Source: a phage. Taken from it: 64,000 nucleotides of DNA. A program made the position numbers and the translations under genes. A model generated the notes under the pieces. That model ran no database searches, was not told the DNA's origin, and saw only the letters and a list, made by a program, of their open reading frames with translations. Below are positions 10,882 to 32,576 of this stretch, in pieces. Where the stretch lies: assembly GCA_020619395.1 (NCBI GenBank), contig GCA_020619395.1_4860.1. One strand, written 5' to 3'. The stretch's first letter is position 1. Each line of letters begins with the position of its first letter.

Positions 10882-11769
10882 ATGAAAAACGATTTGCATC
10901 TTGCGTATAAAACCACATTCAACCACCCGCTGCATCTATCTTCCCCAGATTCAGTGCGTGCGCACCTTGCTGACAAAGTCAGACTGATTGCACAGATTCC
11001 TGGTGAGTGGCCAAAGGTTCGTGGTCGCTTCTTGACCGACAAGAAGAACTACACCGTAGAAAATACGTTTAAGATCCGTGATATGGTTGCAGAGGCCATC
11101 GTTATCTTTAACGGCGATGGTAACTCTCGTGGCGTGTTAGTCGACGGTAAGTATTTCTTCAGTGAAGGGATTTTGAACAACAGCGTCGATTTAGAACTGA
11201 TGTTTACACCGTTTGACGAACTTGAAGCAAAACCGATGGCGCGCCGTTGGTGGAGTCCGGACTATCTGGGCTCGTTCCCTTACTACTTTGTACTGGTACC
11301 TGCCGATACGGAAACGTATTTCGACACCGAACCGTACATCGATATCGAGGGATATAAAGAACTCGGCATCACCCGTTTAGCGGACATGATGGCGTATAGC
11401 TATAAGTTCGTGTGGGATAAAAAGCGTTCTGTCTGGTATGCGTTGACTGACGATTTTGAAATCACCAAACGTATTCGTAAGCCGTGGATGCAACACCTGG
11501 TTCAAACCCGATATGGGGATTACCCGGCGACAGAAGCGGATTTGAGTAAGCTGGTAAGCTTCCTCTTAACGAAGGTGGATTTAACGAAAGAAGAAGCAGA
11601 AGCTGTTTCTGAGATTCGTAGTCGTTCGGTAACGTTGGCCGATTTGAAACGCTTGAACGAAAGACACGCCGACCTGAACAAAATTTTAGCTGCCTATCAC
11701 GACCCGATGTTACTGGTGCCTGGCGCTAATGTAGACGAAGATCCTTTATTCGCCATTGATTATATTTAA
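10882..11769 (+). CDS. Hypothetical protein in Cys-peptide/rSAM cluster (295 aa)
   Basis: ATG with GGAG upstream. No recognisable motif; co-oriented and tightly spaced with the rSAM genes. Confidence 0.6.
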   Translation: MKNDLHLAYKTTFNHPLHLSSPDSVRAHLADKVRLIAQIPGEWPKVRGRFLTDKKNYTVENTFKIRDMVAEAIVIFNGDGNSRGVLVDGKYFFSEGILNNSVDLELMFTPFDELEAKPMARRWWSPDYLGSFPYYFVLVPADTETYFDTEPYIDIEGYKELGITRLADMMAYSYKFVWDKKRSVWYALTDDFEITKRIRKPWMQHLVQTRYGDYPATEADLSKLVSFLLTKVDLTKEEAEAVSEIRSRSVTLADLKRLNERHADLNKILAAYHDPMLLVPGANVDEDPLFAIDYI

Positions 11770-11791
11770 AAATATACTGGAGCAACCTGCA

Positions 11792-12706
11792 ATGACAGAT
11801 CAAGTAGAATCCAGGATCTCGTCTGAACTGTACGACAAACCGTCAATTCTGTCGGTTGTCGCAACTTCTAAGTGTAACTTAGACTGTAGCTTCTGTGGAG
11901 GGGCTTATTACATGGATAGAGAAGATACTTCTCGTGAGTTTCAACGCGAAGAGATTCTCTCGATTTTAGAGAAGAATCCGGATATCGGTGAGATTCATTG
12001 GACGGGCGGTGAGCCGCTGTTAGCGCAGCGTAAGATTGAAGACTTCGTGAACGAGTTGAAGGAGTCTCATCCGAACCTCCGTCATCACATGTACACCAAC
12101 GGTTTAAAGATGCGTAAATCACATCTGCCGTTGCTGAAACAGTTCGACCTTATCTTTGTGTCCATTGACGGCTACAAGAAGTCGGAACGTCCGTTTATGA
12201 ACTTTGTAAACGGTGGTAATCACGAAGCGCTGGAAGTGCTGTACGAGCTGGACAACTATTACACCTGGGGTGTGATGACGCGTGACCAGTTAGGTGATAA
12301 ACGCTGGTACGAAGATTTCATCGAGCTGCACCGAGCAATCTATCATTACCGTCCAGGTGGTGTGTCGTTGTTGTTTGATGCGATGATGCCGAAACCGTTA
12401 TCGCCAGACCACGTCATGAACTTCATGTACGGGTATTGGAAAATACTCGACAATATCGAACGCCTTAACATGCAGAACGATTCTGAATGTGGGCTCGCGA
12501 TCAGTAAAATGTTCGATACCGAGTGCAACACGTGCAGTGAAGTGCTGTGGCTTAACGCCGACGGTACGCAGGAGCAAATTCAGAACGCCCCAGAGATATT
12601 GGAAGTCGGCTGTAATCGCCTGGCGCGTTCTATCGGCGTTGATGCGTATAACTACATCAACCGTGTAATTTCTGCTAAGCGTAAACGGGCGGCGAACAAT
12701 GAGTAA
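11792..12706 (+). CDS. Radical SAM enzyme (304 aa)
   Basis: CNLDCSFCGG CxxxCxxC motif near N-terminus; additional C-terminal Cys cluster (ECNTCSE..VGC). Start moved to ATG 11792 (tracked 11756). Confidence 0.75.
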   Translation: MTDQVESRISSELYDKPSILSVVATSKCNLDCSFCGGAYYMDREDTSREFQREEILSILEKNPDIGEIHWTGGEPLLAQRKIEDFVNELKESHPNLRHHMYTNGLKMRKSHLPLLKQFDLIFVSIDGYKKSERPFMNFVNGGNHEALEVLYELDNYYTWGVMTRDQLGDKRWYEDFIELHRAIYHYRPGGVSLLFDAMMPKPLSPDHVMNFMYGYWKILDNIERLNMQNDSECGLAISKMFDTECNTCSEVLWLNADGTQEQIQNAPEILEVGCNRLARSIGVDAYNYINRVISAKRKRAANNE

Positions 12707-14027
12707 TAGCGAACAGCAAATCCAGTACACACCACGCACGTATCAGGTTGTGACTAACCTGTCATGTAACCTGGACTGCGAATACTGCTACGAGCGTAAA
12801 TATCCGCGTAACAACAAAGTAGCAGACGTGATTGATTTTATCCACGCTTGTTTCGAGCGCGATAAAGATATCCCGAACGTTGAAGTCATCATCGATATCA
12901 TCGGTGGTGAGCCGTTCATGCAGCCTAAACTTCTTTTGGCGGCCTTTGAAACCGCAGAGAAGTTATGCGCAGAACACAATCGCCCGTATATGTTCAGTAT
13001 CTCCACGAACGGTACGCTTCTGGACCGTCCGCTGAACAAAGAAATTATCGAGCGCTGGAAAGACAAACTGTCTATTGGGGTCTCCATCGATGGTTTACCT
13101 GAAGTCCATGACAAATATCGTATCTTTACCACGACGCGTGAAGGGTCGTACGAAGCTGCGGTACGCGGTTACAATTATCTGAAGAGTGTTGGCATCGCTG
13201 AACTGGGCGTAAAAGCGACGTTTACGATCGATACATTGCCGCACTATGCCGCCAGCATGAAATCGTTAATTGACATGTCCGGCGGTGGTACCATTTCTGG
13301 TAATGTAACGTACGAAGATATCCTGCCGCGCCATATGGCGTTGGATATCGCGAACCAGATGATGGACGTGATGGACTACTGGATTGAGAAGGGTCTGCAC
13401 ACCAACCCGCGTAACACGATTACACACATCATCCCGGATGGCCTGAACTTTATGGCAACTTGGGACCCGGATTGGCGTGACAAACTCTTACACGACGACT
13501 CTGTTCGTCTCGACCCAGAACGCCTGAAACCGTACTGCGGTACGTTGACGCACATGACCTGTCTCGGCTTTGATCGCAAGATTTACGGTTGTAACCGTTT
13601 CATGTCCACGGTAACTTCCCGCTCTGCTGTAGCGGAACTGGTCGGTCGTGAGTTTGTGAGTCTGGACGGTGGTAAGCTGTTAGAAGAGATTCAAACGCAG
13701 TACACCAACTACCCAGAAACCTGTTTAGGGTGTCCGATGAAACACAGCTGCGGTAGCTGCGCAGCGGCATCGTACGAAAACGGTGAAGGTACACTGGAAG
13801 ACCGTAAAGCGTATCACGCCGAGCGTCGTCAGTGTGGTTGGACTACTGCGAAGCTGATGGCGGCGGAATATTGGTATCAGAAAACTGGTACGACTCGCGC
13901 ATCAGATTTGCACGATAAATCCATGTGCTATTGTTCACGTTGTGTACGCCAACGTGCCGAAGCAGAAAAATTACAAAACGGAGCCCAGAATGAAGTCAAT
14001 ACTGATTCACAATTTTACGAAGCGTAA
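12699..14027 (+). CDS. Radical SAM enzyme with SPASM/twitch-like C-terminal Cys-rich domain (442 aa)
   Basis: CNLDCEYCYERK CxxxCxxC motif; C-terminal CLGCPMKHSCGSCAAAS..CGW..CYCSRC cluster typical of auxiliary Fe-S domains. Confidence 0.75.
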   Translation: MSNSEQQIQYTPRTYQVVTNLSCNLDCEYCYERKYPRNNKVADVIDFIHACFERDKDIPNVEVIIDIIGGEPFMQPKLLLAAFETAEKLCAEHNRPYMFSISTNGTLLDRPLNKEIIERWKDKLSIGVSIDGLPEVHDKYRIFTTTREGSYEAAVRGYNYLKSVGIAELGVKATFTIDTLPHYAASMKSLIDMSGGGTISGNVTYEDILPRHMALDIANQMMDVMDYWIEKGLHTNPRNTITHIIPDGLNFMATWDPDWRDKLLHDDSVRLDPERLKPYCGTLTHMTCLGFDRKIYGCNRFMSTVTSRSAVAELVGREFVSLDGGKLLEEIQTQYTNYPETCLGCPMKHSCGSCAAASYENGEGTLEDRKAYHAERRQCGWTTAKLMAAEYWYQKTGTTRASDLHDKSMCYCSRCVRQRAEAEKLQNGAQNEVNTDSQFYEA

Positions 14028-15284: not shown

Positions 15285-15812
15285 TTAAACGAATCCGTCC
15301 AGTTCACCGTTGGTGGTGCTCAGGTCAGTTTTAACGATTGGCTGCGTTACAGTATAAACTGCAAGGCTGGCAGGCTGGTATTTAATGTGGCCTTCTTTCA
15401 CCATAACAGTGATGATTTTCTCACCACTGTCGCCGTCCTCGCGTGAAATGGTGAGTTCAGACAATGCAAACGCATCTTCCGTTTTACCGGCGGCAATTAG
15501 ATCTGCGTTGACAAAAGCAAGCACTTCTTCATCGGTATCCCATTCTGCCTGGTCAGCGGTAACTGCTTTCGCACCGATGATGTTCAATGAATCGAGGCGG
15601 GTATAATGCAGCTCTTTCTCGCCAGTAAAGTTAGCGGATTCCGCGGTGGCAGTGATGGTGAGTTTGGAGTTGCGAGTGTCTCCAGAATCTGCTGGTGAAT
15701 AGTCAGCAACAGCGCCGAATGTAACGTCAGCAGAAGTTAACGGACTAGACAGTCCGCTGTTTGCAGCATTAAACAGCGCAACGAGTTGGTCTTTTGCAGA
15801 GATGACTGCCAT
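15285..15812 (-). CDS. Short member of fibre-module family (175 aa)
   Basis: N-terminal module (LVALFNAAN..RNSKLTITA..ELHYTRLDSL) plus C-terminal TNGELDGFV shared with C-type paralogs. Confidence 0.65.
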   Translation of the reverse strand: MAVISAKDQLVALFNAANSGLSSPLTSADVTFGAVADYSPADSGDTRNSKLTITATAESANFTGEKELHYTRLDSLNIIGAKAVTADQAEWDTDEEVLAFVNADLIAAGKTEDAFALSELTISREDGDSGEKIITVMVKEGHIKYQPASLAVYTVTQPIVKTDLSTTNGELDGFV

Positions 15813-15892
15813 GGTTGTTTCCTTATAGTAGGTTTGTGGTGCATACTAAATCGTTCTAAAAACAACATAGTGGGCTTAATATGACAGTAAAG

Positions 15893-15920
15893 TTGGCTGT
15901 TAAACGAGAAATTTTATACC
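15893..15920 (+). promoter_or_regulatory. Possible sigma70-like promoter for lipoprotein gene
   Basis: TTGGCT, 16-nt spacer, TATACC about 15 nt upstream of the RBS. Weak match. Confidence 0.25.
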
Positions 15921-15935
15921 ACTGAAAGGTACTCT

Positions 15936-16427
15936 ATGAAACGTCTATTTATCGTATTCGCGATTATAAACCTGTTGGCCGGTTGTGTTCAGTCGCCAAG
16001 CAACATAGGACAATTTAGCGCCACACCAGTAAAGAATCACGACTTGGTGATTTATACATGCACAGGGACGCAGGAGAAGTTTATAGACTACCGTCCGGTT
16101 CTGGACAATCTACAGATGATGCCGCGGTCAGTAACAGTAATGGATGTGGGTGCAAACTGGGTAGCAACGTGGGACGGTGGCAAACTAGAGTCACCGATGA
16201 TGTTTAAAGATACAATTGGCAAAATCGACGGGAATGTTAACACCACCACAGGTGAGCGTTATTACCGTATTAATAAAACCGTAAACGATAGCCCCACTTA
16301 CTCTTTTTCGGATGTGAACCCGTATACCGGCGAAGGTAAAGGGATGACATTCTTTCGCTGCAGCAGCGGGTTTATCGGTGAAGTTCCTACTCCGATTACG
16401 ATTGTTCCGTTAGAAGAAAATAAATAA
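15936..16427 (+). CDS. Lipoprotein (163 aa)
   Basis: Signal peptide MKRLFIVFAIINLLAGC with lipobox LAGC. Lone plus-strand gene between minus-strand genes, with its own terminator. Confidence 0.7.
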   Translation: MKRLFIVFAIINLLAGCVQSPSNIGQFSATPVKNHDLVIYTCTGTQEKFIDYRPVLDNLQMMPRSVTVMDVGANWVATWDGGKLESPMMFKDTIGKIDGNVNTTTGERYYRINKTVNDSPTYSFSDVNPYTGEGKGMTFFRCSSGFIGEVPTPITIVPLEENK

Positions 16428-16429
16428 TG

Positions 16430-16470
16430 CTTACCCACTCCCGTAAGGGGAGTGGGTAAGGGCTTTATTT
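16430..16470. terminator. Bidirectional terminator
   Basis: 13-bp stem CTTACCCACTCCC/GGGAGTGGGTAAG, loop GTAA, then GGCTTTATTT; A-rich on the other side. Confidence 0.7.
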
Positions 16471-16552
16471 ACCCTCTAAAACGCTCTGTAACGCTCTCTA
16501 AGCGCATTAAACGTATCAAATGATAAATGATATTACTTTTGATTAAAGTGGC

Positions 16553-17068
16553 TTAGATTTTAACTAGCTTGCTCCAATCGATGGGTTGTTGCTTAACCAC
16601 TTTAACGGTACCACGTGTCGGTGACCAGAAGGTGATATCAGGCTGGTTGCGTACGTCAACATGCAACCAGGTAATATCGCACTCGATAAAGTGAATAAAC
16701 GGAAACTCGTTAGGGTTCGCGGCAATATAGTCGTGTACTTTCTGCAACGGAGTATCAAGCATTGTTGCATCAAACGCATTACCGAATTTATGCATACTGC
16801 CTGATTCGGCGTACAGTTTGTTTGCACGAGTTTGCCAATCTCCACCCTTTGGTTTCTCTTGATTAATAAAGAACTGCAGGGTACGCAGACTACGCTGTTG
16901 CTGGGAACTGGTTAAAATCACCATCCGCCCAAAACGATTACGAATCTGTTGGAGCGAGATTAGCAGTAACGGATTAAGGAAACGAATAGCACCTTCACCG
17001 TATTTCGCGATGTACTCCTGCGGCATCAACTCTTTTAACGCGAAGTTGGCAGGATTCGGATGAAACAT
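16553..17068 (-). CDS. Peptidase M15-like (candidate L-Ala-D-Glu / D-Ala-D-Ala peptidase, endolysin-type)
   Basis: SMHKFGNAFD (H-x6-D) and WLHVDV (second His) resemble zinc-ligand motifs of M15/VanY peptidases. AAGGAG RBS. Confidence 0.5.
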   Translation of the reverse strand: MFHPNPANFALKELMPQEYIAKYGEGAIRFLNPLLLISLQQIRNRFGRMVILTSSQQQRSLRTLQFFINQEKPKGGDWQTRANKLYAESGSMHKFGNAFDATMLDTPLQKVHDYIAANPNEFPFIHFIECDITWLHVDVRNQPDITFWSPTRGTVKVVKQQPIDWSKLVKI

Positions 17069-17077
17069 TTTTTCTCC

Positions 17078-17719
17078 TTAAGGGGCAGTCAGGAACGCAC
17101 GTTTGATATTCAAATACTGCACGTTTACCGGTTGCCCATTAGTAATGTCAACACGTTCGTGTTCAGGAATCGCTAACGTACGAGATGTTCTAAAGAACAG
17201 GTAGTTGCGATTATAGGACAACGTCTTTTCTACCGGCCGGCTATAAACCACCTTAGAGTTATCGTCTACATAGGACGGCCAACCAAACTCGTGAACGGCA
17301 TGGTAGAAGGACTTACGAATAAAGGTGTCAACGCCTAATGCCTCCATGATGCGTAAGAACATCAGGTCAGCGAATGTTTTGTCACATGCACGAGATAGAT
17401 TACCTTCGACAGTGTCAGGGTAAAAGCCTACCGATGAACGTTTCTGGTAAAACAAATCATGCACACAAGCGGCAGCGGCCCAAGGCCCATCCGGATGCAG
17501 GATAGGACGTAACGCTTCTGGAATGCTTGCCAGGTCCGTCACAAATCCTCTCGGTACCGTTACCCATAACGGGGTATCCGGATGCACACCTGCTAATGCT
17601 ACCATCGCATCCATTCCGGTCTGTTCACGATAGAGGCTGCGCAACGTAAACTCGAAATGGAAATCATCCGTGAGGATAAACCACGGCTTCTCTAACAACG
17701 TATACTTAAGTGCTTCCAT
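17078..17719 (-). CDS. DUF1353-like protein
   Basis: VPRGFVTDLASIP..AAACVHDLFY matches the DUF1353 signature as recalled. Confidence 0.5.
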   Translation of the reverse strand: MEALKYTLLEKPWFILTDDFHFEFTLRSLYREQTGMDAMVALAGVHPDTPLWVTVPRGFVTDLASIPEALRPILHPDGPWAAAACVHDLFYQKRSSVGFYPDTVEGNLSRACDKTFADLMFLRIMEALGVDTFIRKSFYHAVHEFGWPSYVDDNSKVVYSRPVEKTLSYNRNYLFFRTSRTLAIPEHERVDITNGQPVNVQYLNIKRAFLTAP

Positions 17720-18657: not shown

Positions 18658-18703
18658 GCATGGGTTATCTTCAGGCTTTAAACCCGTCAAGTTCCTCGTT
18701 AAA

Positions 18704-20895: not shown

Positions 20896-22215
20896 CTATA
20901 GCGGTGGATACCAAGGGACCGGGGCGGTTTTGCTATATGGACTGTAGACCATATAGCCGCCTTTGCTTGGGTCGTAATAGATGAAATAGTTACAGTAATT
21001 CGAGTAAATGCTCGTCATTTGTTTGGATTGGTATCCGTTACGGTATAGTCCCTGGTAAGTAATAGCTGATGTCGTGGTGGTGTAAGCAGTGTGGTACAGT
21101 ACCCGACGCCGGTTAGCAATACTTTCTTGGAACATTTCTTCGGTCGGAAACGCGTGTTGCATCAGCCGTCGAATACTCCCGGTACAGTATCGAGTGCCAT
21201 ACGGGGAACCCGTTAAATCATCCGCAGTTTCAGGCGATTCTGCCCGAGTCAACACGTACTCGTTTTGATACAACGTGACGCTCATCGAATTTGGGCTGGT
21301 TTCCCGGAAACTCATGTAACGCGCATAACGTTCGACGTCCTCTTCCTGCGCCAAATAGGCCACGTTATTTTTCGGACCAAAGTGCAAGAAGAACGGACGG
21401 CGGAGATTACCCATATCCTCAGGTGGCGTCAACTTCACGCAGTAATTGTACTCCCCACGCATATCAGGGTCTAAGCCTGGGTTGTTATTGCGTGTAGCGA
21501 CATACCCATAGAGGTCATACGGGTTATCAGTAGCAGCATTACCGATAGTGAACGGGATGCCCGACCATGCCGACAGCGCCGCGATGAACTGGGTCATGTA
21601 CGAGTTACTGTTTAGTCGCAGCGGGGTACCCATCGGGATATTGATTATCTGTTGGGTGTACATGCTCCAGTCGAGTCGATAGACCGTGCTGTAAACATCC
21701 ATGGGTTCCCAAGCTCCGGTTTCGGTGGTGTGGTACAAGTCGGCAAAGCTGGGCTCTTCACGAATAAAGCTAATAGGAATGTGACCCGTGAATGCGGGGT
21801 TATCCGATTTAATCGCCACCGTCCGATCGCCCGTTGCCACAGTGATCATTGCAAACTGGCTGTCAGGATACGTTAAATCGTCAGCAGTAAGCACCAGCCC
21901 ACAAGCTGCGGAAATCCGGTCGATGATGTCGCGGTAGGACGTCGCCCGATAAGGTACTTTAACCGGTACGCTGACGCCTTTAAAATACTGCGAAAGGTTT
22001 AAGCGGTCGTAGTAGATGTCCATCTTACCGCTGTAACCGCCACCCTGTAATCCGTTTACCACTATACGGCTGTTGCGGCCATCGCGCAAGGCATTGGTTA
22101 AAGGACCTTGTAATAACGCCACGTTGGTTGCGTTGAGTGGTTTCTTGAGCTGCGGGTTATCACGATTAATCTGATCCCAAACCAGCTGCATGACAGGTTT
22201 GTTATAGTTGATCAT
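20896..22215 (-). CDS. Fibre-module family protein (439 aa)
   Basis: N-terminus MINYNKPVMQLVWDQINRDNPQL..RNSRIVVNG..IYYDRLNLSQYF; C-terminal SPYSKTAPVPWYPPL. Confidence 0.65.
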   Translation of the reverse strand: MINYNKPVMQLVWDQINRDNPQLKKPLNATNVALLQGPLTNALRDGRNSRIVVNGLQGGGYSGKMDIYYDRLNLSQYFKGVSVPVKVPYRATSYRDIIDRISAACGLVLTADDLTYPDSQFAMITVATGDRTVAIKSDNPAFTGHIPISFIREEPSFADLYHTTETGAWEPMDVYSTVYRLDWSMYTQQIINIPMGTPLRLNSNSYMTQFIAALSAWSGIPFTIGNAATDNPYDLYGYVATRNNNPGLDPDMRGEYNYCVKLTPPEDMGNLRRPFFLHFGPKNNVAYLAQEEDVERYARYMSFRETSPNSMSVTLYQNEYVLTRAESPETADDLTGSPYGTRYCTGSIRRLMQHAFPTEEMFQESIANRRRVLYHTAYTTTTSAITYQGLYRNGYQSKQMTSIYSNYCNYFIYYDPSKGGYMVYSPYSKTAPVPWYPPL

Positions 22216-22225
22216 TGCAACGTCC

Positions 22226-22262
22226 TAAAAAAAGAAAATAGGCCCTTCAGGGCCTATTTTTA
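22226..22262. terminator. Bidirectional terminator
   Basis: TAGGCCC-TTCA-GGGCCTA hairpin flanked by A-run and TTTTT. Confidence 0.6.
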
Positions 22263-22289
22263 GCTGTTATGGTGAAGTACGCTATCCCT

Positions 22290-22382
22290 TTAACTCCAGC
22301 TGATTCGACCTGCGTGTTGGGGATTATCCCGCTGAATGAGCCGACACAACAGCTCAAGTGCAGTGGATGAGTAAAACCCCAT
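22290..22382 (-). pseudogene. 30-codon remnant of a C-type fibre-module gene
   Basis: Translates to MGFYSSTALELLCRLIQRDNPQHAGRISWS*, matching the N-termini of the C genes (MGLYSAPELELLCQQVVRDNPELAGRIS..). AGGAG RBS retained; stop after codon 30. Confidence 0.6.
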
Positions 22383-22393
22383 ATTAGCTCCTG

Positions 22394-23299: not shown

Positions 23300-24298
23300 T
23301 TACTCCACTAACTCGATAACGAATGCGTACAAACCGACCTTCTCAGCACTGTCAATTAACGTAACTTGGGAGAGGTTACGTTTCGACGTATTGGTTATGC
23401 TTGAATCGATAGGCGCAGACCCGCGAACCAGAACTAATCCCGATTCAGGATCACGTTCTTGGCACAAGAAACCTTTGCCTTGGTAAGCGCTACCGCTCCC
23501 ATAAATGGACGCTGGACTAATATTAGTCCAGTTAGGGAGCATTTGTTTGTTAGGGATACAATCTCCGAACGGATAAACAAAATCGTTATATTCGCAGCGA
23601 CCATATTCCAAGTCATCATGGTCTGCGTTTCGCAACGATTCATCCAATGTCATTACTGTCGGTTCGTCCCCGTCGGTTAAACCGCGCAGCAATCGCATCC
23701 GATAGGTGTCGCCTTGCCATTCAAACAACCCACTCTGGTCAACACCTGCCAAATCCCCACGTCCGTTATCAGGACCAAATCCATCAACACCGTACACAAG
23801 CCCCGCGTTATAAATGTCATTCCACGAGTAAAGTGTAGAGTTAAATCGTCCGCCGCTGTTCATCATGTAGTAAACTTTACCATGTCGATAAAACTTGTTC
23901 ATGATTAGCGTGCCCGTGCCCGATATCCCTGTTAATGCACGAAAGCCTGCAGGCAACGCGTCATAGGTCATCTGTTCTTCGAACGGCAACTGCCCCAGAA
24001 ACGCCAAGTCGTCAGTATCGGAATAGTTAATCTGGTCGACGCCACCCACACCACGACGGTTTTTAATGACAATGGATTTTTGTGGACTACCTACGGTACG
24101 GCCGTTAACAGTTACTGTTAAAAGATACCAGTAACGGGTGTTAAGAATAACGGTTTCGTCCGTCCATTCCGTTTCGCCATTACTTAAAGTTGCAATAGGG
24201 GCTGGTAATGCGGCTGTATTTATTTTAGCCGTGCCCCGATAAATGTTAACAATTGAACCTGCCGGATTTTCATTTTTCCAGCGTAGTGTGAATGCCAT
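23300..24298 (-). CDS. Fibre-module paralog type B, triad 3 (332 aa)
   Basis: MAFTLRWKNENPAGSIVNIYRG.. N-terminus; AAGGAG RBS; 3-nt gap to A gene. Confidence 0.7.
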   Translation of the reverse strand: MAFTLRWKNENPAGSIVNIYRGTAKINTAALPAPIATLSNGETEWTDETVILNTRYWYLLTVTVNGRTVGSPQKSIVIKNRRGVGGVDQINYSDTDDLAFLGQLPFEEQMTYDALPAGFRALTGISGTGTLIMNKFYRHGKVYYMMNSGGRFNSTLYSWNDIYNAGLVYGVDGFGPDNGRGDLAGVDQSGLFEWQGDTYRMRLLRGLTDGDEPTVMTLDESLRNADHDDLEYGRCEYNDFVYPFGDCIPNKQMLPNWTNISPASIYGSGSAYQGKGFLCQERDPESGLVLVRGSAPIDSSITNTSKRNLSQVTLIDSAEKVGLYAFVIELVE

Positions 24299-24308
24299 CT
24301 GTTACTCC

Positions 24309-25751
24309 TTAGAAGCCGTTCAACTCACCGTTCGCGGTTGCTAAATCTGTTTTAAGTGGAGGTTCTGCCTGAGTAGGCGGTAGTGGACGCGGTGCGTCGA
24401 CGTGTGGTTCAAGTACAACCATCGGCCTAACTGTACCTACGCTGTTCGACACTGTCGATAACGGCAGCGCAGTATCGACGTTTGGTTCACCCACCACAAT
24501 CGGGCTGATAGGTTCTTCCACCTGTTCCGCAGTTGTTGCTAGAGGTCTCGGCGCATCTGTTGTCGCAACCTCGACTGCAAGAGGGCGAATGCTATCAGGT
24601 TGTGGTGATGGTACATTAGGAATAACCCTAACGCGCCACACAACATCCCCTTCCACATCAGCTAAAGATAAGACGATGTCGTCCTTATTGATTTCCTCTA
24701 AAACAGGCCACCAGTAAGTGGTATCTGTAAGGGTTACCCATTCAACTGAGCCACCGCGCATATTGCAACGTTGTACTTTAACAGGGTTACCCCCGGTTAA
24801 CAGTTGTTGCGTGAAGAAGACGGTGGTTCTGGTTAACGTGGTGTCATTTGCCCAGTCGCCGCCCGTAGAACCGTCACCGAGTTGTGAAATAAGCCACAAC
24901 GGTGTGGCCTTTGATAAATCAGGGCTAACCGGAACGGAGACGCGGTAATAATGCGTCTTGTTATTCTCAGTTTTCGTGACAATCAAAGCCTGGTCAACAG
25001 GTTCGATACCGTCTGGATACGGACCAGTGTCACCTGTACCGAAAATGGCACCCGCTTGATAAAGGGCCGTCCAGGTTGCTGTTAACGTTCCGGTAGTCGG
25101 TAGATAAACAATCTTACCATCCTTGAAAAATTTCAACCATTCGAAAGTCATTTTCGTTGGGGCAACATCAGGACGAATTAGGTTGTTTAGTTCAGCAAAG
25201 GTAAATAACTCTTGCTGAGAAACGTGGCCGAAGTATCCGTTTGTGCTGTCCCCTGCCAACAAATATTTATTGCCTGGCCCAGAATCTGGATAGTAGCCCA
25301 CGGCTTCATTCAAATAATCGACCGGGATATAGCCGCGATAGCATACGCTATTATACGCGGTTAAATTAATACGTGTTGGCGTTGCCAGCGATTTGATAGG
25401 CGCGTCTACCGACTGTACACTGCTATCAGATAACCAAACACCGTATAAATCGCGTAGAGCTGGGAGAAGATCCCGCACGGTCTTGGCCGTTTGTGGTACG
25501 TAGACGCGCGGAGCTATTTTAAATAGATCTGATAATGTTAAACGGTCGTAATAAACCGTGCACTCCCCAGAGAAACCTTTACCGGGTTTACCTACCAACG
25601 TAATTACCGTGTTACGACCATTCTTAGTGGTCTCGGCAGGAATACCCCTCACCCCAATCGAATCAGCGCTGATTCTTCCTGCGAGTTCAGGGTTATCCCT
25701 TACGACTTGTTGGCAGAGCAATTCCAGTTCGGGTGCGCTATACAATCCCAT
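24309..25751 (-). CDS. Fibre-module paralog type C, triad 3 (480 aa)
   Basis: N-terminal family module (VRDNPELAG..GRNTVITLVGKPGKGF..VYYDRLTLSDLF), central GPG..GYFG..ELF domain, DAPRPL repeats, C-terminal TANGELNGF. Confidence 0.7.
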   Translation of the reverse strand: MGLYSAPELELLCQQVVRDNPELAGRISADSIGVRGIPAETTKNGRNTVITLVGKPGKGFSGECTVYYDRLTLSDLFKIAPRVYVPQTAKTVRDLLPALRDLYGVWLSDSSVQSVDAPIKSLATPTRINLTAYNSVCYRGYIPVDYLNEAVGYYPDSGPGNKYLLAGDSTNGYFGHVSQQELFTFAELNNLIRPDVAPTKMTFEWLKFFKDGKIVYLPTTGTLTATWTALYQAGAIFGTGDTGPYPDGIEPVDQALIVTKTENNKTHYYRVSVPVSPDLSKATPLWLISQLGDGSTGGDWANDTTLTRTTVFFTQQLLTGGNPVKVQRCNMRGGSVEWVTLTDTTYWWPVLEEINKDDIVLSLADVEGDVVWRVRVIPNVPSPQPDSIRPLAVEVATTDAPRPLATTAEQVEEPISPIVVGEPNVDTALPLSTVSNSVGTVRPMVVLEPHVDAPRPLPPTQAEPPLKTDLATANGELNGF

Positions 25752-25762
25752 GAAGTCTCCTG

Positions 25763-26664: not shown

Positions 26665-27654
26665 TTAATCCTCGATAAGCTCGATTACTGGAATCCAAAT
26701 ACCGCCCACGGTCGCACCAGGGACATGTTGTATACGCTGGAGGTTATCCACGGTATCAGTGGAATCCGCCGCCGCCAATCCGCGCGTCAGCCCCAACTTA
26801 CGTTCTGGGTCAAACTCCTGACAATGCGCCCCACGGCCTGCCACCAGCGATCCATTTCCGAATATGCTGGAGTTCGACCACTTTATCAGGGACATCACTT
26901 TTTTCTTTTCTGGGAACCAGCTACTTATCCCATAGATGAGTCGGTTGTATTCGCTATCGGCAGTATACGGTGACGCGTCATGGAGTTTACCGTCCCACTG
27001 TGCATCGAGTGTCATGACCGGGCTTTCACTGTCGAGTGTTAAACCGCGCAGCAGGCGCATCCGATAGCGGTCACCCAACCACGTAAACTCCCCAGCCTGG
27101 TCAACGTCAGGTAAATCGCCATGACCGCCTTCCGGACCAGGTCCCGCCACACCGTACAGCAAACCCGCGTTATAAATCGCATCACGGCTATACAGCGTGT
27201 TGCCGTTCACACGAAGACCACTAAACAGATACAGAATTTTACCGTCTAGCTGGAACTTCATCAAGCCCGGCTTAACAGTTGGGTCGTATCCAGAAAGGGC
27301 CACAAACCCTGGCGGATAATCACCCGCGCTAGGTAATTCACCGTACGCCACGTACCCGTAATACGCAAAGCGGTCATCACCGTACTGTGGAGCCACGATG
27401 CCGATACCGCGACGGTTCTGAATTAGAATTGATTTCTGCGGACTGAACAGTGTCCGACTTCCCACTGTCACGGTGGTCATGTAGTAATACGTTGTCCCCA
27501 GTATCGCTGTTCGGTCAGTATACTCAGTTTCCCCGTTAGTGAACGTTGCCAGGGGTTCAGGTAATGCCGTACGCACCAGAGGTTTGGTGTCGCGGTACAG
27601 CTTCACGGTCGAAGCCCCAGGGTTATTGTTCGTCCAACGAATTGTAAAAGCCAT
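26665..27654 (-). CDS. Fibre-module paralog type B, triad 2 (329 aa)
   Basis: MAFTIRWTNNNPGASTVKLYRD.. homologous to the other B copies. Confidence 0.7.
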   Translation of the reverse strand: MAFTIRWTNNNPGASTVKLYRDTKPLVRTALPEPLATFTNGETEYTDRTAILGTTYYYMTTVTVGSRTLFSPQKSILIQNRRGIGIVAPQYGDDRFAYYGYVAYGELPSAGDYPPGFVALSGYDPTVKPGLMKFQLDGKILYLFSGLRVNGNTLYSRDAIYNAGLLYGVAGPGPEGGHGDLPDVDQAGEFTWLGDRYRMRLLRGLTLDSESPVMTLDAQWDGKLHDASPYTADSEYNRLIYGISSWFPEKKKVMSLIKWSNSSIFGNGSLVAGRGAHCQEFDPERKLGLTRGLAAADSTDTVDNLQRIQHVPGATVGGIWIPVIELIED

Positions 27655-27666
27655 TGTCGTTACCTC

Positions 27667-29163
27667 TTATTGGAATCCATCCAACTCACCGTTAGTATCG
27701 CCCAGAGTAATTTTTGAAGGTTGGGCGATTTGGTCAGTCGTGAGAATAATCGGTCTAATCTTAACGCTAGCCATGCCTGTTACCGCGACGGAATATGCAC
27801 GTTCATCATTGTCCGTCGTGGCAAGCAGAGGACGTGGTGAGTCTGATGACGCTTCCCGCAGCCAGGCAGGGGTGGCAGTTTCGGTGTTGTCGGTGTTGAA
27901 AACTAACGGACGTGGATTCGCTGCGGCGGAGGTTTCCGTAATAGGCACCACACGAAGCGATTCATTTTGGTCGATGTCCGTCAGAGTAACCACGGACGGT
28001 GCCCATGTTAGCTCTGCACCTTCGTCAATCAACGGCACAGGTTCATTGGCAACATCAAACATCTCCAGGATTGGCCAAAAGCCAGAAGAGGTGTAGATGT
28101 AGGTGTTTGAACGATAGCTCGCGCTGATAGACTGGTAATACGCTTGGTCGGCACCGAACTGGTGTCGTAACCACACGTAATCCAGGAAGTTAGCATCAGT
28201 CGTGCTAAGAGTTCCCCACTCCCCATATACGTTCACCGACCCCAATTTGCTGGTCAGTGACAGGATAGAGGTGATTGACGGCGGTTTACTCCAATCAGGC
28301 GCGGCGGCGTTCTCGGTGTAATACGGGATAGACATTCTGAAATAATGCGTTCCTTCATCATCCCGTTTTACCATGTATTTCAACTGTTCAACATCGACAG
28401 GTGTGTAAGTCGACTTCGGGCGAGGTCCTGCGTCTCCGGAATCAAATATTGCACCCTTGTTGTACAGGTCTGCCCAGGTAACGTTGCAAATCGCACGGGT
28501 CGGAACAAACACTACCGCCCCATTCAGAAAGAATTTGAGCCACTTGATAGCGTAGCGGTTAGGCCAGTTGGTGCCGTTATAAAGGGCATACACCATTTCA
28601 TCAGATGTGAATAACTCTTCCGCGCTTACCAGCCCAAAGAATCCGTATAACTCATTACCAGCCATTAATCCTTTTGGCCCAGGACCCGACTTCGGATACA
28701 TCGCAATCGGTTCGTAAACATAGGTCATCTTGCATGACCCGGTATAGCACAAGGAGTTAGCGTGCGCCGTCAGAGTTACAGTTTCCGGCGTAGCGTATTT
28801 CATTAATGCAACGTTTGGACTGGTGATATCACTCGCGGTTAAGTTCAACCCGTTCAATTCATTGAACGCCGGTAACGCTTCCGCATGGGTTTGTGCGCTA
28901 CGTGGAATACTCACCATATTCGGGCCAGACTTAAATAGACTGGCCAGATTCAACCGGTCGTAATATACCGTTATTTCCCCAGCAAATCCTTTACCGGGTT
29001 TTCCTACCAACGTAATCTGAGTGTTTCGTCCGTTAACGTTTTTCGCAACAGGAACACCCCTGACCCCAATGGAGTCAGGGGTGATTTTTCCTGCTAAACC
29101 GGGATTGTCACGCACAATTTGTTGGCAGAGCAGTTCCATTGAAGGTTCTGTATACAACCCCAT
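27667..29163 (-). CDS. Fibre-module paralog type C, triad 2 (498 aa)
   Basis: N-terminus about 75% identical to the triad-3 C copy; NPRPL/SPRPL repeats; C-terminal TNGELDGFQ. Confidence 0.7.
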   Translation of the reverse strand: MGLYTEPSMELLCQQIVRDNPGLAGKITPDSIGVRGVPVAKNVNGRNTQITLVGKPGKGFAGEITVYYDRLNLASLFKSGPNMVSIPRSAQTHAEALPAFNELNGLNLTASDITSPNVALMKYATPETVTLTAHANSLCYTGSCKMTYVYEPIAMYPKSGPGPKGLMAGNELYGFFGLVSAEELFTSDEMVYALYNGTNWPNRYAIKWLKFFLNGAVVFVPTRAICNVTWADLYNKGAIFDSGDAGPRPKSTYTPVDVEQLKYMVKRDDEGTHYFRMSIPYYTENAAAPDWSKPPSITSILSLTSKLGSVNVYGEWGTLSTTDANFLDYVWLRHQFGADQAYYQSISASYRSNTYIYTSSGFWPILEMFDVANEPVPLIDEGAELTWAPSVVTLTDIDQNESLRVVPITETSAAANPRPLVFNTDNTETATPAWLREASSDSPRPLLATTDNDERAYSVAVTGMASVKIRPIILTTDQIAQPSKITLGDTNGELDGFQ

Positions 29164-29176
29164 GGTATTTACTCCA

Positions 29177-32545: not shown

Positions 32546-32576
32546 CGCCAAAAGAGGGGGGCTCCGAAGAGCCCCT
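32546..32576 (-). terminator. Hairpin terminator between short-paralog genes and triad 1
   Basis: Minus-strand GGGGCTC-TTCG-GAGCCCC followed by CCTCTTTTGG. Confidence 0.45.

Follow-up and report, generated by a model that had tools for sequence, protein, structure and literature searches.

Module exchange and small deletions are well known in phages. In the T-even phages the gp37/gp38 cassettes are swapped, a case in which illegitimate or short-homology recombination exchanges virion or receptor-binding modules; the deletion spectra of T4 rII and Escherichia coli lacI show how sequence is lost between short direct repeats, by replication slippage or short-homology recombination, and gene stubs from illegitimate recombination are classical in phage genetics. 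The jumbo phage SPN3US encodes a group of related virion proteins, paralog family B (gps 83, 138-154, 161 and 237), which are considered head proteins since they were found in a tailless mutant, and the number of members is stated, in general terms, to vary between phages (Ali et al. 2017, PMC5694885). Here we describe a 30-codon open reading frame (ORF) behind a series of such genes in a 64,000-nucleotide (nt) stretch of phage DNA, hereafter the window (GenBank assembly GCA_020619395.1, contig GCA_020619395.1_4860.1). The window belongs to a Seoulvirus, an SPN3US-like jumbo phage; its identity is 100% with Salmonella phage 1252 and 98.8% with SPN3US. An earlier note, made from the letters alone, took the ORF for the remnant of a fourth "C-type" gene, lost from an array of repeats that expands and contracts. 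The comparison with relatives leads us to regard it, with considerable confidence, as a non-functional recombination scar, a pseudogene stub left by a cassette replacement, and not as a gene.

The genes concerned are, in transcription order, seven P genes, three triads each consisting of a C, a B and an A gene, the short ORF, the genes D and gp155, and the endolysin (Table 1). In the SPN3US record P1-P7 correspond to gp138-144, the triads to gp145-153, D to gp154 and the 725-residue protein to gp155, and the locus tags SPN3US_0138-0154, which cover P1-P7, the three sets of C, B and A, and D, fit paralog family B. Pfam assigns C3, D, gp155 and P7 to DUF7941 (PF25613) through a common N-terminal region; the C-type members gp145, gp148 and gp151 are found in phrog_3589, and both the A and the B genes in phrog_1062. 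The C-type genes of the earlier note are members of a virion family already described, with unassigned role.

The ORF runs on the minus strand from an ATG at 22382 to a TAA at 22292-22290, with MGFYSSTALELLCRLIQRDNPQHAGRISWS as its product, and the Shine-Dalgarno sequence CAGGAG lies at 22393-22388, 5 nt ahead of the ATG. The position and the intact ribosome-binding site (RBS) had been given correctly, and the layout TAA-CAGGAG-N5-ATG is also that of the A2-to-C3 junction. The gaps are 11 nt from the A3 stop to the ORF and 29 nt from its end to a hairpin, which agrees with a position directly downstream of triad 3 and before a terminator; what had not been recognised is that the terminator and the bases after codon 28 come from another gene. 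BLASTP aligned the product with C3 at 18 of 28 residues (E = 1e-11) and with the full-length fourth C protein (C4) of phage JN03 at 22 of 24 (E = 3e-14), and blastn gave 94% identity to JN03 over 89 nt (E = 8e-31). These E-values place the homology beyond chance, and exclude a chance ORF. An assembly artefact is excluded as well: about 30 Seoulvirus genomes, assembled independently of each other, have the same stretch, and in 25 of these the identity is ≥99%. The C-derived 28 residues align to residues 1-28 of the DUF7941 C-type proteins, including JN03 QNI20851.1, and the homology of the truncated ORF to the C-gene N-termini was thus correctly seen. No gene is annotated for the ORF in phage 1252 (the source record), SPN3US or SPFM7.

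In SPLA3, Lh1B, EC001 and JN03 the similarity to the window breaks at or within the ORF. The aligned ATG of JN03 opens a C gene of 504 amino acids (aa), followed by B (326 aa), A (298 aa) and the endolysin, and D and gp155 are absent. This C4 is preceded by the same A3 3' end and spacer as the ORF: the A3 3' end and stop form the left flank of the scar, and JN03 retains the final ~110 nt of A3 ahead of its C4. A full-length fourth C in related phages, which had been proposed as the test of the remnant, is therefore present, with B and A at the same position, and four intact triads are also found in the Erwinia phages pEa_SNUABM_4 and ChrisDB-like L012. Triad 4 of JN03 is orthologous to triad 4 of pEa_SNUABM_4 (59, 61 and 54% aa identity), and JN03 C4 to Phobos gp152 (57%). 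Because of this orthology to Erwinia and Phobos genes, and the four intact triads in the Erwinia relatives, the fourth triad appears to be ancient and ancestral, and the stub in the window to be its remnant. The similarity between window and JN03 in BLAST stops at ~22312 and resumes at 18668, where window 18668-17000 matches JN03 15539-17207 at 94.4%. The stub thus has N-terminal homology, a syntenic full-length orthologue and a truncation through an identifiable rearrangement, three of the features by which a pseudogene is recognised.

The ORF is a three-part chimera (C4 / C3-like / P7-type), which implies at least two successive rearrangements. Its first 66 nt are identical to JN03 C4 at 62 positions, as compared to 41 for C2 and 36 for C3, and carry the CRLI.RDNPQ signature common to the type-IV C genes of Phobos (gp152), pEa_SNUABM_4 and L012. 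The following six codons (HAGRIS, nt 67-84) are closer to C3, 15/18 as compared to 8/18 for JN03 C4, and together with their continuation in SPLA5c this C3-like part agrees with the resident C3 in 45/54 nt (83%), at corresponding positions of the gene. The hybrid C4/C3 structure is one possible hint of exchange between paralogues, and gene conversion, unequal crossover or a foreign allele could be behind it. After codon 28, TGGAGTTAAAGGGATAGCGTACTTCACCATAACAGCTAA aligns with the last codons and stop of Phobos gp143, CR5_142 and the window's P7, and the agreement with the 3' ends and stop codons of these three P genes is column for column. Read out of frame, this segment gives the ORF its W-S-stop (22298-22290), and the old P7-type stop TAA remains at 22262-22260. 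No donor of this fragment, P7', was found with tblastn; all matches were the last P-array gene of relatives, with 55-64% aa identity. The stub retains only 28 of ~470-500 C codons, and is by itself below any family threshold.

A longer form of the same chimera is found in SPLA5c. The ORF there has 91 codons (MGFYSSTALELLCRLIQRDNPQHAGRISADSIG-ECTIYYD-ESLNSNTVADVTTASNSFANKAYGRVVIQTDVEAAGVKGIAYF...), with a C N-terminus of 33 aa, the ECTIYYD and a P7-type C-terminus of ~50 aa (...LNSNTVADV..ANKAYGRVVIQT..AAGVKGIAY..), and blastn aligned SPLA5c 11645-11778 with P7 of the window, 32715-32581, at 73%. C-type sequence is kept from two gene positions, nt 67-99 and nt ~187-207, so that the locus must once have held ~207 nt or more of a C gene, later reduced by internal deletion. 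Compared with SPLA5c, exactly 140 nt are missing from the window. In SPLA5c this segment is bounded by GTCGAATCAGC and GTCGAAGCAGC, and one copy of the repeat is kept in the window at 22309-22299; the frame shifts into W-S-stop because 140 is not a multiple of three. The SPLA5c-type continuation GGTCGAATCAGCGCAGATTC was sought as the mark of a full-length hybrid-C parent, with one match in the metagenome scan and none in the genome contigs. The single match (L014, OFKW01003391.1) is an unrelated 1.2-kb contig with a chance 20-mer, as an exact 20-mer is not specific by itself when very large collections are scanned. IMG/VR searched with A3 gave only three already-sequenced isolates: SPN3US, a ChrisDB-like Erwinia phage and Phobos.

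Behind the P7-type fragment follow a hairpin, D and gp155. In the Derbicusvirus phages Phobos and CR5 the order is last P gene, terminator, D, gp155 homologue and only then the triads. Because the P gene and terminator there directly precede D and the gp155 homologue, the window appears to carry a block consisting of a P7-type 3' fragment, terminator, D and gp155, still dragging a piece of its former left neighbour. Outside Seoulvirus, D homologues were found only in Phobos and CR5 (~50%), directly behind the P array, and there is none in JN03. The block ends at ~18669, upstream of the endolysin, where the similarity to JN03 resumes. Besides its DUF7941 N-domain, gp155 has a glycine-run-rich Pfam GP38 domain (T-even tail-fibre adhesin, E = 5.7e-18), and against PDB sequences it gave weak gp38-type receptor-recognition matches only (E ~5e-3). 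Such a domain is odd in a family reported as head-located in SPN3US. PDB sequence searches with C3 and A3 gave no matches.

The hairpin has an 11-bp stem with 5 GC pairs and a 4-nt loop, and is followed by a T-run, the two elements by which a rho-independent terminator is predicted, and the number of such elements found by the scan of the window (19) is on its own not above that of shuffles (13.1 ± 3.4). A hairpin with T-run after the last P gene is also present in Phobos, in CR5 and behind P7 of the window. Their stem sequences differ, the loops vary between TGAA, TTCG and TTCA, and one T-A pair is swapped to A-T between window and Phobos. It appears that this structured element is kept in position across the genera, and not in sequence. 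The resident P7 has its own GC-rich hairpin and T-run GGGGCTCTTCGGAGCCCC at 32558-32575 (minus), ahead of C1. Only 12 nt separate the T-run from the start codon of D (window 22215-22234, minus; also 12045-12087 of L007), and because this leaves no room for a promoter, the expression of D and gp155 would have to depend on read-through of the hairpin, both in Seoulvirus and in Derbicusvirus. The hairpin may then be an attenuator or an RNA-stability element instead of a full stop. SPN3US transcribes with its own multisubunit RNA polymerases.

Table 1. Features of the locus in the window, all on the minus strand, in transcription order
Feature	Position	Remarks
P array, P1-P7	38658-32581	seven ~280-aa paralogues
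Triad 1 (C1, B1, A1)	32532-29177	
Triad 2 (C2, B2, A2)	29163-25763	
Triad 3 (C3, B3, A3)	25751-22394	
C3 (gp151 homologue)	24309-25751	its 5' end is the paralogue that recombined with the scar in SPLA3 and Lh1B/EC001
A3 (gp153 homologue), 300 aa	22394-23296	last intact triad-3 gene; phrog_1062; SPN3US numbering
A-to-C intergenic spacer with CAGGAG	22383-22393	layout matches the A2-C3 and JN03 A3'-C4 junctions
Short ORF and hairpin	22382-22227	
Scar segment 1, codons 1-22	22317-22382	type-IV C 5' end; nt 1-66
Scar segment 2, codons 23-28 (HAGRIS)	22299-22316	C3-like; nt 67-84; left copy of the 11-bp repeat GTCGAATCAGC at 22309-22299
Scar segment 3	22260-22298	last ~13 codons of a P7/gp144-type (DUF7941) gene, out of frame
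Intrinsic-terminator-like hairpin	22260-22235	terminator scan, minimum free energy hairpin
T-run CTTTTTTT	22234-22227	
D (gp154 homologue), 439 aa	20896-22215	DUF7941 (PF25613, 1.5e-26); first gene of the replacing block
gp155 homologue, 725 aa	18704-20881	DUF7941 N-domain and Gp38-adhesin-like domain; second gene of the block
Endolysin	downstream of 18704	

From the homologies, junctions, repeats, gene orders and variant states in the relatives we infer the direction of events and their order as follows. In an ancestor of the SPN3US clade, P1-7 would have been followed by the triads T1, T2, T3 and T4, with the endolysin behind them. A double recombination in the SPN3US lineage would then have swapped C4 (from ~nt 200), B4 and A4 for P7'-terminator-D-gp155. 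The incoming block, foreign or translocated, would have had the Derbicusvirus-type order and brought the last ~150 nt of a P7/gp144-type gene. Its left joint was probably illegitimate, fusing a C 5' end that was already a C4/C3-type hybrid to the P7-type 3' end, and the right joint would lie in the spacer ahead of the endolysin. Small deletions within the chimeric ORF would have led to the 91-codon state of SPLA5c, and the 140-nt deletion at GTCGAATCAGC / GTCGAAGCAGC to the present 30 codons in the lineage of the window; triad 3 would have been lost later, in SPLA3 and in Lh1B/EC001. The RBS and the ATG survive because they are located in the untouched A3-C spacer, and the stub peptide may well be translated yet dispensable, which we infer from Lh1B and EC001.

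Several points weigh against this history. With an intact RBS and ATG the peptide could be made, and could have some activity. The scar is 99-100% conserved in the SPN3US clade, but the flanks are equally so, which makes this conservation uninformative. The polarity is set by parsimony on a small number of taxa, with triad 4 present in no Seoulvirus but JN03, and the 91-codon form of SPLA5c comes from one short-read assembly. Furthermore, no close donor was found for the P7'-D-gp155 block, P7' having only 55-64% aa identity to any sequenced P7-type C-terminus and D ~50% to the D of Derbicusvirus, so that the block may be of horizontal or of ancient intragenomic origin.

Five independent deletions were found within one genus, with their endpoints at 8-14-nt homologies and one copy kept. 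One is the 140-nt deletion in the scar of the SPN3US type, at an 11-bp imperfect direct repeat. SPLA3 has lost triad 3, its C3 5' end being joined to the scar at 8 nt (GAATCAGC), and its short ORF consists of 28 C3-derived codons, with 10 of the 28 residues differing, and the same WS-stop. In Lh1B and EC001, which are viable E. coli phages, triad 3 and nearly all of the scar are gone, codon 5-6 of C3 runs into the P7' fragment at ATAGCG(C/T)AC, a 9-nt homology with a single mismatch, and an 11-codon relic is left. JN03 has, after A2, a dead C3::A3 fusion at an imperfect repeat of ~14 nt (CAACGCCAnCnCnT), in which ~380 nt from the 5' end of C3, containing an in-frame TAA, precede the last ~110 nt of A3, and which is located in an unannotated gap of ~500 bp in the record (11637-12112 of L003). 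The fifth is a B2::B3 fusion in SPLA5c, at 14 identical nt (ATTTATAACGCGGG) inside a patch of 74% identity. By these junctions the contraction of the array in close relatives is real, and it proceeds by short-homology events. Of the expansion that had also been claimed we found no sign: no extra or near-identical triad is present among ~40 related genomes, and the sole duplication observed is one of 82 nt, in tandem, within the hybrid B of SPLA5c.

Some of these records have peculiarities of their own. The Lh1B record has N bases exactly at the triad-3 deletion junction (~11997-12006), where the near-identical EC001 is unambiguous; low coverage or heterogeneity may explain them. In SPLA5c (8093-10598 of L005) C2 lacks 78 nt, in frame, and the fusion of B2 and B3 at ATTTATAACGCGGG has removed A2 and C3; the 82-nt tandem duplication interrupts the hybrid B, for which the annotation gives two ORFs (196 and 132 aa). 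SPLA1a has a window-type locus. The two phages, SPLA5c and SPLA1a, differ in virulence and in gtrB sensitivity (PMC10949491). For triad 2 neither Phobos nor pEa_SNUABM_4 has a clear one-to-one orthologue, and an older duplication of the triad-3 type, specific to Seoulvirus, may have given rise to it. A few kb past the endolysin and the tail-assembly-chaperone genes, at ~11756-14027 on the plus strand, there is a gene pair whose counterparts in SPN3US relatives have a radical-SAM-domain annotation.

It was proposed in the earlier note that the fourth unit was lost by recombination between the repeats of a dynamic tandem array. The triad number does vary: the SPN3US type has three triads, SPLA3 and Lh1B/EC001 have two, and JN03 and SPLA5c have two together with fragments; the crossovers of SPLA3 (C3 5' end/scar) and SPLA5c (B2/B3, in the 74% patch) are at equivalent paralogue positions, and the C4/C3 hybrid of the scar could record an unequal crossover. 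The 3' partner of the stub is, however, heterologous, a P7-type 3' end followed by D and gp155, and not a triad gene. The triads are only 30-48% identical in aa and have separate one-to-one orthologues in other genera (window T1 with Phobos gp146-148, window T3 with Phobos gp149-151 and pEa_SNUABM_4 T2), and so appear to be old paralogues and not a homogeneous recent repeat array. Nor are the high-identity repeat units expected of unequal homologous recombination present: just two substantial nucleotide patches exist between triads, both joining triad 2 to triad 3, one at the C2/C3 5' ends (25519-25752 / 28931-29164, 234 nt, 73%) and one in B2/B3 (23676-23820 / 27038-27182, 145 nt, 74%), and the identical stretches at the crossovers are just 8-14 nt. 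Of the five junctions two, those of SPLA3 and of SPLA5c B2::B3, are at equivalent paralogue positions and three, those of Lh1B/EC001, JN03 C3::A3 and the 140-nt deletion, are not. No genome compared has gained a triad. Unequal homologous recombination in an expanding and contracting array is thus unlikely, and as the mechanism for the loss of triad 4 it is largely refuted; the loss looks instead like the replacement of triad 4 by a heterologous block, with the 140-nt deletion thereafter. A site-specific cassette system was also considered and rejected, as no two deletions share a junction and the region has just one inverted repeat, a weak pair of 31 nt at 74%. It is conceivable, if quite improbable, that the scar serves as a homology "landing pad", where the A-C spacer, RBS and C 5' end allow C cassettes to be exchanged, lost and regained repeatedly in co-infection. 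The SPLA3 crossover and the C4/C3 hybrid would then be traces of this, including a past unequal crossover that duplicated a triad, and the locus would be a hotspot of cassette swapping that tunes the family-B modules of the virion, triads as opposed to the gp155 module with its Gp38 domain.

The remaining explanations concern the ORF as it stands. A conserved micro-gene whose product mimics the N-terminal helix of DUF7941 proteins, and for instance competes in assembly or acts as an adaptor, would fit the good RBS and ATG, the unchanged ORF in ~25 genomes, and the fact that its 28 residues are the most conserved N-terminal motif of the family (..LL...I.RDNP). The earlier note had named such a gene as what would speak against a decay product, but across the genus the ORF has 91 codons in SPLA5c, 30 in the SPN3US type, 30 that are C3-derived in SPLA3, where 10 of 28 residues differ, and 11 in Lh1B and EC001; these two are viable without it, its last two codons and stop are the 3' end of another gene read out of frame, and its conservation in the SPN3US clade is no higher than that of the flanks. 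We find a micro-gene hardly credible. A role in cis, in which translation of the ORF modulates the hairpin and thereby the read-through into D and gp155, is very unlikely. The 12 nt between T-run and D make read-through necessary, and in SPLA5c the ORF stop (TGA) is in the hairpin loop, where ribosomes would melt the 5' arm, but the window has 29 nt between the stop and the downstream hairpin, which is outside the reach of a terminating ribosome. Derbicusvirus and the window's P7 moreover have such a hairpin after a normal gene stop and without a short ORF, and in Lh1B and EC001 the 11-codon relic suffices. The stub could also never have been a full gene here, if an A 3' end, spacer and C 5' end were copied by local duplication or patch transfer, and the mosaic of two C types is what short conversion patches give. 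This is barely plausible, as in JN03 the same A3 3' end, spacer and C 5' end run into a complete orthologous triad 4, and the C-type remnants of SPLA5c from two positions imply at least ~207 nt of a C gene.

Read as a scar of cassette replacement, the locus would give base-level proof that the largest virion paralogue family of SPN3US (B, 20-21 proteins) is remodelled module by module within one genus. A whole C-B-A triad has been exchanged for a D-gp155 module with a T-even Gp38-adhesin-like domain, and triad 3 has been deleted independently in at least four lineages, including two isolates that infect E. coli. The repeated losses imply that triads 3 and 4 are dispensable, and suggest that triad 4 and D-gp155 are alternative occupants of one genomic slot. 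JN03, SPLA3, SPLA5c and Lh1B/EC001 are natural "knock-outs" for the role of family B, and they may also bear on differences in host range and virulence within Seoulvirus, for instance between SPLA1a and SPLA5c (PMC10949491). Many further Seoulvirus genomes have been reported from within Salmonella assemblies (PMC12768965). Indels of SPLA1a and SPLA5c in a "virion structural protein" region have been mentioned (PMC10949491), but in the literature searched there was no description of this scar, of the replacement of triad 4 by D-gp155 or of the deletion series, and the portion of the proteomics supplement text of PMC10052503 that was available has no entries for gp144-155.

Compared with the C-type genes of DUF7941, the stub has the same upstream spacer, RBS and position after an A gene, but it is a hybrid of two C subtypes with an out-of-frame P7-type end, and thus a relic and not a member protein. 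The part from 22298 to 18704 has the arrangement of Derbicusvirus (Phobos gp143-145, CR5_142-144), with a P 3' end, stop, hairpin and T-run, the AGGACGTTGCAATG start region, D and gp155. The difference is that only ~13 codons of the P-type gene remain in the window (~50 in SPLA5c), that the unit is behind the triads and not in front of them, and that its genes are only ~38-62% identical to those of Derbicusvirus. As in the swapping of T-even cassettes, a non-orthologous module is found at the same locus, with a gene fragment at the joint and the boundaries near conserved N-terminal sequence and in an intergenic spacer. Unlike gp37 and gp38, however, the family has been placed in the SPN3US head by mass spectrometry (PMC5694885), and its members are not proven tail fibres. 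The deletions resemble those of T4 rII and lacI in that each endpoint is in an identical or near-identical direct repeat of 8-14 nt, of which one copy is retained, but the latter were selected mutants, and here the comparison is one of sequences from natural isolates of a phiKZ-like, nucleus-forming phage. A gene stub made by illegitimate recombination is ordinary as a phenomenon; this one is unusually well documented, a clean and instructive example, though not a surprising one.

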